DNA of 64,000 nt. It comes from a virus (taxonomy: Duplodnaviria; Caudoviricetes). Every line of letters begins with the position of its first letter. Position 1 is the first letter of the stretch. This document shows, piece by piece, positions 4,941 to 21,729 of the stretch. Position numbers and translations under genes: made by a program. The DNA lies in IMG/VR virus record IMGVR_UViG_3300025066_000003, positions 4,336-68,335 of that record. One strand, written 5' to 3'. Below the pieces are notes generated by a model. That model made no database searches. It was given only the letters and a program-made list of their open reading frames with translations, and was not told where the DNA came from.

Positions 4941-6625
4941 TCCTTTCCGATCCTATAGTCTCCTTCTAAAGCAATAGAACAACCCAGCCGTTCACCAGCT
5001 TCCGTTATGCTATCGCATCCCATCTGCCCCACCTCTTCAGCTAACTCAGGTACACATTCCATTTGCCATTCATCATGCACAGTAGCCATGAATTTAACCC
5101 TGTCCTGATACTTCTTCTTCTTTATCTTACGATCAAAGATACATTGAGCAAGCTTCATCACGATAGCCCCATCACCCTGTAGTTGTACATTCAAGGCAGC
5201 ATGTGCTGACCTACATGGTACAAGTCTACCGTCGAGTAAGGATATCTTTCCAAGCTTCTTAACCTGAAACTTACAGTCATCTATAACCTTCTTCAAAGCA
5301 GGAAGACCATCTAAGAATTGTTTCTTAAGTTTTCTACCCATGTAAGAAGACTTACCAACAATCTCACCAATCCTAGCATCTCCAGCTCCATAGATAAAAC
5401 CATAGAAAAATGTCTTAGCATCATTCCTGTTAGATAATCCAGCTAACCTCTGGTTCTCTGAGTGGATATCCTTCTCGGTAATGATCTTACCATATGCTCC
5501 CTTATCAAAGGGATACATACGATTCCCAAGCATCCTTGCCTCTAGTCCTTTAGCATCTATCCCTACCTGTAGCCATCCCTCTCTAGGAACAAATAACCGC
5601 CTAGCTCTAGGGTCTCCTGATACCTGTTGTAGGTTTGGTTGGTTAGCGGTCATTCTTCCTGTGACCGTACCCTGTGGGTTTATAGACCCATGTATCCTAC
5701 CATCTCTAGAGTTAGATGCCCTAGTTATCCAGTCGGTAACCTGCCCCATTAACTTTATAATATTAAAATATTCTACCAAGACCTTAGCTTCGGGGAAGTT
5801 AAGCTTCTTGAGTACAGACTCATCAACCTTAGGATTTCCTTTGTCTGTTAATGGTGGCTTCCAGTTATATTTATCACCAAGCCTCTCAGCTATCTGCTTA
5901 CGAGATCCCGGATTGAATTTAATAACCTGATCCTTTAGTTTCTTCCCTGTCTTATCAGAATATCTTTCAATAATCTTAGTAGGAAAGACTCTTTTGAATC
6001 CGTTCTCGATCACCGTCTTCCTCTTTTGTAAAGTATGGTCTAGTTCTATGGCTGCTTTCAGATCGAAGCCAAAACCATTTCCAGTTTGTGTAGCAATGAT
6101 CTTAGATAAGATATGCTCTAGAGATATTATCTTTTCATGTGTCATAATATACTCTAGTTGTTCTAGATATATAGCCTTATTAACCTGAGTATCTTGTACA
6201 CAGTATTCTAACATCTCTTCACTGAATACTTCCCATCCTCCAGCATACTCTTCCTTATATACCCCAAGTGCCCTGCCCCACATCTCTAAAGAGTTTCCTC
6301 CAAGAGGGTGTTGATTGCGGTCGGGATACATTAGTTTACTTATTATTAAAGTATCTATAGTATCTGTGGGTATCTTACCGTACAATCTCTCCAATAAAGG
6401 GATGTCATACATGGTAATATTATGACCAACCAATAGGTCAGCCTCTCGTAACATTTGTACACCTTCCTCGATCTCAGATGGACCAAAGGTTTTAACAGTG
6501 TCGCTGTCTAAATCTAAGCACACCATACAATGCACTGTATCTCCTTCTGGGACAGAGACTCCCTTCTTCCCGAGTACTAACTCAGAAAGACCATTCCCCT
6601 CAATATCAAATACGATACGGTTCAT
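4922..6625 (-). CDS. Family A DNA polymerase (T7 gp5-like)
   Basis: Exo VFDIEG; motif A DAKGLEAR, motif B AKTFFYGFIYGAG, motif C VHDEWQ. Confidence 0.97.
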   Translation of the reverse strand: MNRIVFDIEGNGLSELVLGKKGVSVPEGDTVHCMVCLDLDSDTVKTFGPSEIEEGVQMLREADLLVGHNITMYDIPLLERLYGKIPTDTIDTLIISKLMYPDRNQHPLGGNSLEMWGRALGVYKEEYAGGWEVFSEEMLEYCVQDTQVNKAIYLEQLEYIMTHEKIISLEHILSKIIATQTGNGFGFDLKAAIELDHTLQKRKTVIENGFKRVFPTKIIERYSDKTGKKLKDQVIKFNPGSRKQIAERLGDKYNWKPPLTDKGNPKVDESVLKKLNFPEAKVLVEYFNIIKLMGQVTDWITRASNSRDGRIHGSINPQGTVTGRMTANQPNLQQVSGDPRARRLFVPREGWLQVGIDAKGLEARMLGNRMYPFDKGAYGKIITEKDIHSENQRLAGLSNRNDAKTFFYGFIYGAGDARIGEIVGKSSYMGRKLKKQFLDGLPALKKVIDDCKFQVKKLGKISLLDGRLVPCRSAHAALNVQLQGDGAIVMKLAQCIFDRKIKKKKYQDRVKFMATVHDEWQMECVPELAEEVGQMGCDSITEAGERLGCSIALEGDYRIGKDWSECH

Positions 6626-6952: not shown

Positions 6953-7424
6953 CTAAACCAAACTCCTTATAACTAGCCAACATCTTTCCTAAATTATGCA
7001 TGTGCTCCACATTAAAACTTCTTAACACTATACAGTCTATATGAGTAGCACCCATCTTCTTTGCTGCTCCTAATCTACAGTTACCGTATCCTACGATATA
7101 CTGTGGACCATCTGAGTAAGGGATGTTCTGAAACTTATTGCCCCAATATCCCGAACCAGTTAAATGCCTAGGAAATATATATTCTCCTTGGTCATCTCTA
7201 TCTCTATAATTCCTAAAGAACTGATGCGTAACTAGGGGGTTAACTAGCCCCTCCTCTGGTAGATTTATTAATAACTTCTCTACCAACTTAGGATTACCAC
7301 CTAAGTTTTTAGGATGGTATAAACACTCTATCGGTATTCTCTCAACTACAAAATCAGGGACTGCCCAATTCTTAGAGAAGGTACCATAGTCTGCTAAACA
7401 TTGATTCTTAGATTCTAATATCAT
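6945..7424 (-). CDS. ParB/Srx-like N-terminal domain protein
   Basis: GLVNPLV...YIVGYGNCRLGAAKKMG..IDCIV pattern. Confidence 0.6.
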   Translation of the reverse strand: MILESKNQCLADYGTFSKNWAVPDFVVERIPIECLYHPKNLGGNPKLVEKLLINLPEEGLVNPLVTHQFFRNYRDRDDQGEYIFPRHLTGSGYWGNKFQNIPYSDGPQYIVGYGNCRLGAAKKMGATHIDCIVLRSFNVEHMHNLGKMLASYKEFGLDD

Positions 7425-9148
7425 TAGTTATCTCCAACGGGTCTAAACTCTGCCGAACCATCATCACCAATAACTATATCTACCTCATCTAATCTACCTG
7501 TTTTCCTATTGAAATACAAAGCACTAGCAACACCTGCTCTACCTGTGAGCCTATTCTTTAGAACTCTAACAGTGGTGGTATTAGCTAGGTTGTCGTCAGG
7601 ATTCTGTCTATCCCTCTCTAAACCTACGACCACATTAGGTACACTTGCTAGCGAGCCAGAGCCACGAAGATCTTGTAAGGTAATCCTATCTCCCTCTTCG
7701 TATGCTTTATTTGTTTTCTTTAGTTGAGATACAACATCAATACGTACACCAGTACGAGAGACCAACCCACGTAACTCTTTCATTATGTTATCAATGAGTA
7801 AACGCTCTGAAGAACCTCCATCAAAATCACTTGACGATCCCATTAATCCAGCAGCTGCCGCAGTAATATGATCTAGTACAATAACATCTACCTTAAGAGA
7901 TACCGCCATGTATTCCATTCTAGCACAAAGATTCTTAAGTCCATTGTTTCCTAGGTGATCATACACATAGAAGGATGTTTGTCCTAGTTTAGTTCTAGCA
8001 TTAGCATACTCTTCATCCGTTAGATCATCAATGTAATCCATGAATACAGGATCTCTCCCCATCTTCTCATTAAGATCATTCATTAGCTTCGCAGCTTTGA
8101 TAGCCCTAACAGGTTTATTAATCATCAAGGAAATCATATCATCCATAGTTTCCTTTGGTGCTTCCTCTAACATTATAGCACCCACACTACGCCCCTCTTC
8201 AAGGTGGTGGTGCATCAACTCTCTAAGGATTGTTGTCTTGCCTGATCCAGTACCACTAGCCCACAATGTAATCTCTCCAGACCTTTGTCCAATAAGGAAC
8301 TCAGTCAAAGTGTTAAAGGGAAAGGGATACACTCTTGTTTCTGATAAATCTTGAGTATCTATAACCCTAGAGATATGTAAGATCTCATCTGGTGCGAATG
8401 GTTGGGCTTCCCATAACGCAGACACAGCATCATCAGCCATACCCTTCTTAAGACATTCGTTACCATCCTTACAAGGTAGCGTAGCAATCTTACACTTACC
8501 CGGAGGTAATATCTCTGCCACCTTAACCATCGCCTCCTTGCCAGGATCGTCTTGATCGAAGCATAATACTACTTCATCATAAGATACTACCCATTCAAGG
8601 TTATCTTTGATTGCTTTCACAGCACCCGCTGCTCCGTTAGGTAAAGATACTACACCCCACCTACCACCAAGCATCTGGTTAATAGCCATGCAATCATACT
8701 CTCCTTCGGTAATGATGATTCTCTTACCTCCCTTACGCCATAGGTGTTGACCCCATAGTGTGGGATGTGAGTTGTCTCCATTCCAAAAGAACTTCTTATT
8801 TGAACCACGTAAATGTTGAGCAACTAAAGTTCCATCCTTATAGTAGTTAGCAATCTCTAACTTCTCATCCATGTTACACTGATAATTATATTTCTTTGCG
8901 GTCTCCTTAGTGATACCACGCTTAAGATTGCCAACACAATCTCCAGTATACTTAGTAAACTCCAAAGATTTGTTCACTGGTTTCACTGATACTTCTCCTT
9001 TGGCTGAATTATAGTAACCACAACTAAAGCAATAGCTATGTCCGTCATCATAATTAGCTAAGTTATCTCCAGATCTATCATGACCTTTCGATGCACACGA
9101 AGGACATCTGCCTCTACTTGTAACTACACTTTCTTCTTCTATTTTCAT
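7424..9148 (-). CDS. Primase-helicase (T7 gp4-like)
   Basis: CPSC/CFSC zinc finger, TOPRIM ITEGEYD, Walker A GTGSGKTT, DLRGSGSL, KNR.TG. Confidence 0.97.
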   Translation of the reverse strand: MKIEEESVVTSRGRCPSCASKGHDRSGDNLANYDDGHSYCFSCGYYNSAKGEVSVKPVNKSLEFTKYTGDCVGNLKRGITKETAKKYNYQCNMDEKLEIANYYKDGTLVAQHLRGSNKKFFWNGDNSHPTLWGQHLWRKGGKRIIITEGEYDCMAINQMLGGRWGVVSLPNGAAGAVKAIKDNLEWVVSYDEVVLCFDQDDPGKEAMVKVAEILPPGKCKIATLPCKDGNECLKKGMADDAVSALWEAQPFAPDEILHISRVIDTQDLSETRVYPFPFNTLTEFLIGQRSGEITLWASGTGSGKTTILRELMHHHLEEGRSVGAIMLEEAPKETMDDMISLMINKPVRAIKAAKLMNDLNEKMGRDPVFMDYIDDLTDEEYANARTKLGQTSFYVYDHLGNNGLKNLCARMEYMAVSLKVDVIVLDHITAAAAGLMGSSSDFDGGSSERLLIDNIMKELRGLVSRTGVRIDVVSQLKKTNKAYEEGDRITLQDLRGSGSLASVPNVVVGLERDRQNPDDNLANTTTVRVLKNRLTGRAGVASALYFNRKTGRLDEVDIVIGDDGSAEFRPVGDN

Positions 9149-20264: not shown

Positions 20265-20394
20265 AACGCTTTATCTCCTGAGTTACAATAACTCGTTTAC
20301 CTGTCTGCGGATTTAGACATAACAATTCTAAATCACCATTAGATTTCGTCCAATAGTTTTCAACTATCAGACCATTGTACTTTCTTCCTATCAT
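20215..20394 (-). CDS. Hypothetical 59-aa protein (absent from the ORF track)
   Basis: MIGRKYNGLIVENYWTKSNGDLELLCLNPQTGKRVIV...; overlaps the next ORF by 50 nt. Confidence 0.4.
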   Translation of the reverse strand: MIGRKYNGLIVENYWTKSNGDLELLCLNPQTGKRVIVTQEIKRYGKSNERRNQWKRISY

Positions 20395-20429
20395 TTTATA
20401 TCCATACCTATCTCCTATTAAAGAAATTA

Positions 20430-20965
20430 AAAAACAACCTGCTTTACTAGTCGCACCGTAGTGTTACTTAGATTATATACCTGCGATGAACATGAAGTAA
20501 TTGTTACTAGCATTGCCAGTTGCTATCAGTCCTGAGTAGGGCTGTCATTATCGAAGAACATTATTGCACCCGTCTGGATGGGGCAGGTATTAAATTGTCG
20601 GGGAGCAGTAGCAGAGCCTCGGTATAGGTCTTATCTCTAATTCATTGTCTCAAGGACATTCGAGTCTTACTACTCCCCTTAGATTATTGACTCTGGACAC
20701 AAGCCACCGTGTCTATACCGTAATGAATCTTACATCATCTTCATACCCTAAGGTATCACCAAAGGCTTTGTACTCGGCAGAGTCTTAGATTGTGGGGCAG
20801 TAGTAGGGGCATCTGTCCCGACTCTATGATGCTTACCGACGGGGACTCCAACTACTACCACCCCTTAGATTGTAGAGCAGTTTTGCAACGTGCTCAGGTT
20901 TCAGGTTTTGTTCCAGACCGTTACTGGGATAGGTTACGGCTATCACTCGGATGCTTTTATACTCT
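20430..20965 (-). ncRNA. Putative array of five structured RNA domains separated by AYAAUYUAA linkers
   Basis: Linkers at 20468, 20590, 20679, 20785, 20865; each domain closed by a terminal stem next to the linker; G-U wobbles favour the minus strand; U-tract at about 20430. Confidence 0.6.
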
Positions 20966-21219
20966 GCATCACAGGTTGAGTTGATACTGTTTATACTCAC
21001 CAATAGTATCATACTGAGTTATTAGTATAATGTTATCCGCGTAATATAGGATAACCTAGGACGTACGCTAGCCTCTTATACTAATGTTTGTTGTTTTGTT
21101 ACTCTTGGTTACAACTAACCGCATCACGCCACTTGCTCCGCACTTTTCACCGTGAGATATTAGGTTTAATTAAGTGAAGCCACATGCAAACCTAAAAAGT
21201 TTGGCGTTCACTATGTAAC

Positions 21220-21729
21220 TTAGACGTTATCAATAGCAGAGAATACCTCGGCTATCTTGTCTGTCCTAAGTTCAAGCATGTTCTTACAACGAAGGTAACG
21301 ACCCTTCTCCCTAGCATTGGTAAACTTCTCAATGCTCTTATCACTCTCCATGATACTAGCGATTAGGTTTTCATCAAGTGAATCAATGAATCCCTGCTCA
21401 TCTGCTGTTACCTTTGCGTTGTCAGCCTCATGCTTCTCTGATAAATACTGAATAAATGGATTACTCATAGTCTTATCTCCTTCATACATTACCACATTAT
21501 TAAGTACATTACTTATTGTACTCTCTCTTTTGGTAGGATTCTCTTTCCACGTATGTATATGTGTACGTATCCACTGTAAAGCCTCGTCCAATTCGCACTC
21601 ATATCCCCACTCTCCAAAGCGTTTATCGCAGACTCTAAAAGAGCCGTGAGTAGGGTGTTCTACACATACCTTGTTCTTCATAAATTGGACAGACCATCCA
21701 CCTTCTTCTAGTTGTTGTCGTGCGTTCAT
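21220..21729 (-). CDS. Hypothetical protein with an in-frame internal start at 21468
   Basis: 169-aa ORF; internal GAAGGAGA RBS before MSNPFIQ. Confidence 0.6.
   Translation of the reverse strand: MNARQQLEEGGWSVQFMKNKVCVEHPTHGSFRVCDKRFGEWGYECELDEALQWIRTHIHTWKENPTKRESTISNVLNNVVMYEGDKTMSNPFIQYLSEKHEADNAKVTADEQGFIDSLDENLIASIMESDKSIEKFTNAREKGRYLRCKNMLELRTDKIAEVFSAIDNV
21526..21542 (-). promoter_or_regulatory. Putative class B promoter
   Basis: Exact 17-mer; about 45 nt upstream of the internal RBS. Confidence 0.65.

Follow-up and report, generated by a model that had tools for sequence, protein, structure and literature searches.

A conserved array of stem-closed RNA modules joined by a short junction in an uncultured marine podophage

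What does a phage keep in a stretch of 825 nt that carries no gene? The question was raised by positions 20395-21219 of the window, by which we mean the whole 64,000-nt stretch of DNA analysed here. The window covers most of a complete 68.3-kb virus genome from IMG/VR with direct terminal repeats, and the minus strand carries all of the genes of this phage. They identify it as an uncultured, large T7-like marine podophage, with a T7-type primase-helicase, a family A DNA polymerase, a 5'-3' exonuclease, a dUTPase, a ribonucleotide reductase and a T7-type terminase, together with two single-subunit RNA polymerases of 817 and 700 aa. Identity to the nearest cultured phages is at most 25% for the early RNA polymerase (RNAP2) and at most 40% for the terminase. 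The gene-free gap follows the RNAP2 gene and is flanked by a 169-aa ORF, located after RNAP2, on one side and by a run of small genes on the other. A first-pass annotation had proposed an array of five stem-closed RNA domains at 20430-20965, punctuated by a 9-nt linker and probably cut there into small structured RNAs. The RNA element turned out to reach further upstream, to about 21190, and the same layout of swappable cassettes was found in about twenty other marine virus contigs (L numbers below).

Spacers and modules of the window array

The degenerate word AYAATYTAA matches the window six times. Five of these matches lie on the minus strand within 406 nt, at 20468, 20590, 20679, 20785 and 20865, and the sixth, outside the array, is inside a gene. 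None of 200000 simulations placed five of six sites within 410 nt of each other on one strand. Read in the direction of transcription, spacers 1 and 2 (20865..20873 and 20785..20793) are both ACAAUCUAA, spacer 3 (20679..20687) is the variant AUAAUCUAA, spacer 4 (20590..20598) is ACAAUUUAA, and spacer 5 (20468..20476) is again AUAAUCUAA. The distances from spacer to spacer are 80, 106, 89 and 122 nt, which leave different remainders on division by three. No conserved protein frame explains the region, the longest ORF in 20430-21010 being 64 aa, and this is in keeping with the structured-RNA reading of the first-pass annotation.

Each of the four inter-spacer segments (units 2 to 5) is closed by a terminal helix abutting the spacers, with lengths of 13, 7, 11 and 7-8 bp, respectively. 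Shuffled segments matched these lengths in 1, 258, 0 and 117 of 20000 trials, and 0.9% of random genomic segments of the same sizes reached 7 bp. The closing helices are present in the minimum-energy fold of the whole region. Compared with shuffles, the fold z-scores of the four units were -3.0, -2.3, -3.3 and -0.9, while the fold of the whole region was thermodynamically unexceptional (z = -1.4). Chance does not explain the clustering of the spacers and the helices abutting them, and the proposed five-spacer array with stem-closed segments was borne out by the simulations, the shuffles and the minimum-energy fold for these four segments. When the plus strand was read instead, the helices of units 2 and 4 dropped to 4 and 6 bp, so that the sense (minus) strand is the folded one, as had been argued from the G-U pairs on this strand.

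The array begins upstream of the first spacer. Unit 0 (21021..21085, minus strand, as are all features below) is closed by a 10-bp helix, AUUAGUAUAA/UUAUACUAAU, which is longer than any other long-range helix in this upstream part of the gap (z = -2.25). It is conserved in L007 and L025, and its closing words are reused around a different interior in L057 and L060. Unit 0 is followed by the leader, described further below, and then by an inserted module of 54 nt (20874..20927) between the leader hairpin and the first spacer, which is predicted to form two local hairpins. The insert is present in L056 and L065 and missing from L025, a contig whose RNAP2 is 99% identical to that of the window phage. 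In this part the proposed layout had to be revised. The segment next to the first spacer had been described as a 92-nt first unit closed by AGAGUA/UGCUCU. AGAGUA is, however, part of a covarying pseudoknot in the leader, and UGCUC pairs locally within the 54-nt insert; as L025 lacks this insert, the AGAGUA/UGCUCU helix is not conserved.

In unit 2 (20794..20864, z = -3.0), a 13-bp 'handle'-type helix closes a conserved interior. This unit has homologues in L053, L056 and L196, and two pairs changed on both sides among the four sequences. Unit 3 (20689..20784) is conserved more widely than any other module; it is closed by the 7-bp helix GACUCUG/CAGAGUC and has homologues in L007, L005, L066 and L190. 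It tolerates two variable insertion sites, and five pairs changed on both sides among its five sequences. Unit 4 (20600..20678), with an 11-bp handle-type closing helix and two inner helices, has seven homologues. In the alignment of seven sequences, 8 of the 21 pairs changed on both sides and 96.5% of the cells are paired; its covariation score of 0.431 compares with 0.189 in shuffles, none of 500 shuffles scored as high, and all slid registers scored much worse. Unit 5 (20478..20589), closed by the 7-bp helix UACCUGC/GCAGGUA, has homologues in L196 and L198, and three pairs changed on both sides among three sequences. Substitutions in the helices were compensatory, and their direction was consistent across units 2 to 5; the covariation statistics are modest because each unit has only 3-7 homologues. 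Homologues with covarying stems and a conserved spacer thus agree with the proposal of structured RNAs.

The closing helices start with a G-C pair and leave an unpaired base on the 3' side. One of them, GGGGNGUAGUAG/CUACUACNCCCC, is common to at least ten different payloads across arrays, including units 2 and 4 of the window. The similar 3' ends of some units, which had been taken for signs of an ancient duplication, are better described by this common closing helix. Many handle-closed cassettes of L055, L057, L060, L190, L197 and L056 also have the inner word (G/A)AAGCAGG in common, which is not found in the window units.

Downstream of spacer 5, the array ends in a tail (20429..20467) with a U-run at about 20429-20437, followed by the ribosome-binding site (RBS) of the next genes. 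Of the closing hairpin and U-tract that had been suggested here, the U-run is real, but the fold of the hairpin is not significant (z = +0.4). No terminator-like site was found after the array, only the U-run and the RBS, and transcription of the array as part of an early polycistronic RNA is therefore probable. At 20391-20416, an AGGAGA after the array precedes a four-codon mini-ORF (MDIK), and this arrangement is identical in L025. The stop codon of the mini-ORF overlaps the ATG of a 59-aa ORF (AUGA), which suggests translational coupling.

On the upstream side, a class B promoter had been noted, and a copy of promoter family B (AGAAUCCUACCAAAAGAG...) is indeed located at 21522..21542, inside the 3' part of the 169-aa ORF and approximately 300 nt upstream of the gap. 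It is one of five co-oriented copies within the window and likely is the start of the transcript that covers the array. Motifs resembling promoter B lie directly upstream of the arrays in L007 (about 2670) and L005 (about 8545). The spacer itself was also considered as a phage promoter and rejected: it is unlike promoter families A and B, its single copy outside the array in the window is inside a gene, and one array context has no T7-type polymerase in the partial records searched. To our knowledge of boxA-like and Shine-Dalgarno-like words, the parts that define them are lacking in the spacer, and both were dropped.

Two further observations concern the surroundings. Upstream of unit 0, the stretch 21110-21160 weakly resembles the last codons (...VMR..LV stop) of a DUF932 gene, namely the one that precedes the arrays in 65-kb relatives, and may be a relic that was brought along when the array moved. 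Between 25900 and 28200, in the presumed early region, the G+C content is 51% compared with about 40% elsewhere, and the intergenic repeats consist of a hairpin of variable sequence and then a conserved word (GUGUAGCACUCGCUAAACCC) before each small ORF.

Catalogued families did not account for the window array. Rfam 15 gave 0 matches to the window at gathering thresholds and 0 over the region at E<=10, in agreement with the statement that no known family was recognisable, and it gave 0 matches to eleven array-bearing loci. ARAGORN found no tRNA genes in the window; at a threshold of 80% it returned only an off-register call over unit 3. Of two loops that had been called anticodon-like, CCGUAAC is the conserved loop of the leader hairpin and CUGGCAA sits in a predicted stem. 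No GenBank phage had a nucleotide match to the array, and no description of such an array was found in the literature.

Related arrays and exchange of cassettes

RNAP2 homologues with 39-99% identity occur in marine metagenomes, and all of them keep a non-coding gap downstream of the gene. At first look, the exact spacer was absent from the gaps of the closest relatives; the homology of the arrays was found by reading L007 and then by blastn and nhmmer. L007 (68% identity) carries a homologous array in which the closing sequences of units 2 and 4 differ from those of the window yet still pair, and L005 has unit 3 and the leader hairpin. The order, combination and neighbours of the modules vary among the arrays. 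Exactly one module and one spacer distinguish L199 from L197 and its three sister contigs, and L025 differs from the window not only by the missing 54-nt insert but also by a swapped last cassette. The window locus thus holds a conserved, strand-specific and modular RNA array.

The spacer is the common denominator of these arrays. ACAATCTA is the commonest 8-mer in 17 arrays, with 36 copies in 12.8 kb and presence in 17/17 arrays, compared with approximately 0.2 copies expected by chance. It is often varied to ACAAUUUA, ACAAUAUA or AUAAUCUA. At 64 distinct sites, no G followed the spacer, although these sites had been collected by a degenerate pattern fixing five positions. Arrays have two to six spacers each, 60-200 nt apart. 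The spacers bound 43 distinct modules, the majority of which are closed by a terminal helix that reaches up to the spacers. On the sense strand, these helices comprise 288 Watson-Crick, 20 G-U and 4 A-C pairs. Some junctions of relatives have no spacer, such as that of units 3 and 4 in L007, which are separated by AA only. A scan of IMG/VR with a generic pattern of three spacers returned more than 120 matches, all of them noise and none homologous to the arrays.

Arrays were found in three genomic contexts: after RNAP2, between a DUF932 gene and the single RNA polymerase gene of the 65-kb relatives, and on another backbone after genes for a Sak4-like annealase and a PD-(D/E)XK nuclease. In the third context, the partial records contained no T7-type polymerase. 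L066 (65.9 kb, 98% complete) has one T7-type RNA polymerase of 814 aa with the array just upstream of its gene, so the two-polymerase layout is not universal in the group. No neighbouring gene common to the three contexts was found that could be a candidate nuclease; a small Lar-like family is frequent but not adjacent to the arrays.

Several of the more distant relatives carry RNAs of known kinds at the corresponding locus. Pistol ribozymes were detected in L008, L014 and L015 with 42-43 bits (cut-off 34.5), and the gap of L008 also contains a tRNA-Arg. In L003, manA RNA lies at the syntenic locus (7202-7490; 81 bits), with ACAAUCUAC one module upstream and UCAAUCUAC directly after it; on account of these flanking words, it looks less like a gene's 5' UTR than like one cassette of an array. 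L005 contains at 8860-8941 an 82-nt tmRNA-like tRNA-like domain with a G3:U70 pair, which scored 45.4 bits, just below the cut-off of 47 bits. Given these catalogued RNAs in relatives, the locus downstream of RNAP2 is an island of structured RNAs in this phage group.

The details of these elements are as follows. The distant pistols at 9049-9150 in L014, 9151-9260 in L008 and 6631-6740 in L015 are covered by the Rfam match in their 5' part only; they have a long P3 broken by an insert of approximately 33 nt, a GG instead of a GU junction and a 4-bp P2 (GAAU/AUUU). In L014, the pistol is followed by a weak manA-like match (25 bits). The 82-nt RNA of L005 aligns end to end with the tmRNA model without the whole mRNA-like part and, judged by this model, is a putative phage-encoded mimic of the tRNA-like domain of tmRNA. 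Where the window has unit 5, L025 (Ga0209756_1008969) has at 5729-5900 a two-part cassette, the second part of which is a tRNA-like RNA of approximately 78 nt that has G3:U70 in its acceptor stem and the canonical T arm GGUUCGAAUCC. L190 has this cassette as well, with a compensatory change in the acceptor. ARAGORN detects the tRNA-like cassettes of both L025 and L190, which are absent from the window.

A leader resembling the 5' half of a pistol ribozyme

Every complete array examined is headed by a leader, which in the window consists of tandem small pseudoknots at 21019-20950 and a hairpin. Each pseudoknot is built from P1, ACUC(A)/(U)GAGU, the word AUAAA, and a strand that pairs with the loop of P1. 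Copy 1 (20983..21019) has P1 ACUCA/UGAGU, AUAAAC and the pseudoknot helix GAUACU/AGUAUC; the element also occurs in L066, L056, L058, L054 and L195 with the compensatory variant GACAU/AUGUC. Copy 2 (20950..20981) has P1 ACUC/GAGU, AUAAAA and the pseudoknot helix GAUGC/GCAUC, and its variants still pair (GAUUC/GAAUC in L053, GGUAU/AUACC in L007). Altogether, five mutually complementary versions of the leader pseudoknot were seen across the arrays. The variants were tabulated by hand; the MAFFT alignment of the leaders misplaced the strands of the two leader types.

Copy 2 leads into CGAGU and a hairpin with an invariant loop (P3, GAUAG CCGUAAC CUAUC; 20928..20949), which is the signature element of the arrays. 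A pattern for this hairpin matched 16 IMG/VR stretches, in nearly all of which N-ACAAUCUA-N follows directly after the hairpin, and a second scan with unconstrained stem bases matched 24. The stems found were GAUGG/CCAUC, GAUAG/CUAUC, GGUAG/CUACC, GAUGA/UCAUC and two wobble variants, and never a mismatch. Two pattern scans for the signature motif gave 0 matches in 185,579 prokaryote species, each represented by one genome.

The pistol ribozyme is a self-cleaving RNA with ten highly conserved nucleotides (RF02679; Harris et al. 2015, PMC4604425). The leader shares with it P1 (ACUC/GAGU) followed by AUAAA, a covarying pseudoknot in which the P1 loop pairs with the strand that follows AUAAA, a purine-rich junction of 5 nt (CGAGU in the leader, AGCGU in pistol), the P3 hairpin and a single-stranded site directly after P3. 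Furthermore, the true pistols of the more distant relatives head the corresponding RNA island. The leader differs in that it has no P2, with only 0-2 nt between AUAAA and the pseudoknot strand, and in that its P3 loop is conserved, whereas that of pistols is variable. The Rfam pistol model gave 10.4 bits on the L058 leader searched alone (cut-off 34.5) and no match in the window, even at E<=10. A conserved complement of ACAAUCUA in cis, which could act as a hidden P2, was found in none of the arrays. As P2 and a spacer partner in cis are missing and the score is only 10.4 bits, we term the leader pistol-like and not pistol. In its modelled topology it corresponds to the 5' half of a pistol ribozyme. 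The leader is a concrete candidate for a pistol-derived ribozyme variant.

Proposed function, alternatives and known systems

The explanation that we favour, with about even confidence, is an early polycistronic small-RNA operon whose modules are released at the spacers and serve as cassette cargo. Structure, strand, conservation, modularity and genomic position of the array are established by the results above, and on this footing we infer where transcription would start, that the precursor would be cut and by which kind of enzyme, and what each of the modules might do. Transcription would proceed from the phage promoter B through the array and into the downstream genes, and the transcript would present, in this order, a closed module, the pistol-5'-half-like leader, CGAGU, the hairpin, a spacer and four modules. 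Each module would fold independently with its own terminal helix, and next to it would come the 8-nt junction, ACAAUCUA or a close variant, which would serve as single-stranded punctuation or processing signal beside the helix end. Cutting at the junctions would free the modules as separate stable RNAs; candidates for the cutter are a sequence-specific endonuclease, host enzymes of the tRNA-processing type, or, at the first junction, the leader itself. We read the spacer as a processing signal because it is always single-stranded against a helix end, because the modules behave as independent units, and because ribozymes and tRNA-type RNAs share the island. The modules would then be accessory cargo swapped as cassettes between phages, and this exchange suggests roles in host take-over or counter-defence. 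Several results count against the favoured operon: the three contexts have no candidate nuclease gene in common, some junctions of relatives are free of the spacer, the leader has no P2 and a low pistol score, the region as a whole folds unexceptionally, and the homologues of each unit are few.

The same spacer could serve an RNA that is not cut at all. A multi-domain RNA or ribonucleoprotein scaffold, in which ACAAUCUA is a multi-copy protein site or a sponge for an RNA-binding protein or toxin nuclease and the folded modules keep these sites single-stranded, is in our estimate unlikely. In its favour, no other element is as conserved or as often repeated as the spacer, which always lies single-stranded between helix ends and has no complementary partner in cis. 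The spacer also contains words of the ACA/UAC type, like those cut by some toxins of the MazF family. However, the modules have conserved interiors and covarying inner helices that are common to unrelated contexts, which makes them more than insulators. Moreover, the module order is free, and in relatives this island also hosts processing RNAs (pistol) and a tRNA.

We consider it rather improbable that the released modules act as decoys against RNA-targeting defences of the host, such as type III toxins, anticodon nucleases or Ro/Y-RNA pathways. The location of the array in the early region, the tRNA-like and tmRNA-like cassettes in sister arrays, and the turnover of cassettes between near-identical phages, which is like that of arms-race loci, would all fit such a role. 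None of the five window units is, however, a tRNA, a ToxI-type repeat or a Y RNA by the models used, and the precedents that the first-pass annotation had named for a decoy function found no support in the window. Its units are not identical repeats of the ToxI type as in type III pseudo-antitoxins, and the ORFs flanking the array had no Pfam or PHROG toxin match; they are not tRNAs by ARAGORN; and neither a match to the Y-RNA model (YrlA, RF02553) in the window nor one to TROVE (Ro60) or RtcB in the complete 68-kb genome was obtained.

Alternatively, the junction might be conserved mainly as a DNA connector, through which microhomology recombines cassettes in an integron-like manner without an integrase, with any role in RNA being secondary. 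The exact indel of one module plus one spacer between L197 and L199, the cassette swaps between 99%-identical phages, the presence of the array at three genomic positions on two backbones, and the annealase and nuclease genes just upstream in one context all point in this direction. On the other hand, 8 or 9 bases are very short for homologous recombination, the swap between the window and L025 has its 3' end away from a junction, and no recombinase common to all contexts was found. The strict orientation and the single-stranded placement beside RNA helices fit a role in RNA, and we regard a purely connecting junction as quite improbable. The idea that the units are miniature inverted-repeat transposable elements, inserted serially into one 9-bp target that was duplicated each time, draws on their 7-13 bp terminal inverted repeats, the flanking direct copies of one 8-9-bp word and the recurrence of the same termini in many modules, but is hardly credible given that terminal mismatches on the sense strand are G-U far more often than A-C (20 versus 4), interiors covary as RNA, termini differ by module family although a single target is required, modules are seen only within arrays, the signature motif is missing from all 185,579 prokaryote species genomes scanned, and no transposase gene was seen.

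Returning to the favoured operon of released modules, a bolder version of it can be put forward tentatively, and we hold it to be possible but unlikely: a standardised 'RNA cassette' system of marine phages, in which a pistol-derived leader and the 8-nt junction serve both the excision and the transfer of cassettes. If so, the arrays would be an RNA-gene analogue of the integron, manA, a riboswitch candidate orphaned since 2010, would become a trans-acting cassette, and the P2-less leader would represent a new class of self-cleaving or junction-recognising ribozymes. Regardless of this reading, about a dozen structured RNA families absent from Rfam 15, including the window units and the signature leader, travel as interchangeable cassettes with one fixed junction in abundant uncultured marine phages, and manA, pistol ribozymes and a tmRNA-like tRNA mimic are placed in one functional neighbourhood. 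A processing role of the junction would imply a new sequence-specific RNA-cutting activity, be it that of a protein or of an RNA. Should the cassettes serve in counter-defence, they would form a hypervariable RNA arsenal comparable to the anti-defence islands of proteins.

Compared with known systems, the array shares single traits with several of them. As far as we know TIGR arrays, CRISPR and retrons, their defining parts are lacking here, and they were dropped. ToxI consists of identical 36-nt tandem repeats next to toxN, and the nuclease cuts a conserved site between the units. The array resembles it in that a short conserved site separates the structured units of a tandem RNA precursor, but its units of 71-112 nt each differ from the others, and a toxin gene was not detected in the vicinity.

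According to Weinberg et al. 2015, as relayed in PMC6765202 and PMC4604425, phage intergenic regions contain clusters of self-cleaving ribozymes with orphan structured RNAs, and these orphans did not cleave and have no assigned function. Compared with the clusters as they are relayed there, the orphan modules of the array share a standard junction and a signature leader, and they have no match in Rfam 15. The RNA manA (RF01745), an orphan from marine phages, was put forward as a cis-acting riboswitch by Weinberg et al. 2010 (PMC2864571). The window has no match to manA, which in L003 behaves as one cassette of such an array, and this placement does not suggest a cis-acting riboswitch.

In layout, the array is also like polycistronic tRNA operons such as the tRNA cluster of phage T4, in which the small stable RNAs rnaC and rnaD (species 1 and 2) are co-transcribed. 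As in the T4 operon, several unrelated stem-closed RNAs follow one another on a single strand in an ORF-free stretch, downstream of a promoter and ahead of the next genes, and the closing helices of the array are acceptor-stem-like, with a G-C start and an unpaired base on the 3' side. Sister arrays contain tRNA and tRNA-like cassettes as well. The window array, however, has no tRNA, and the fixed 8-nt spacer and the shuffling of cassettes are features of the array that set it apart from a tRNA operon.
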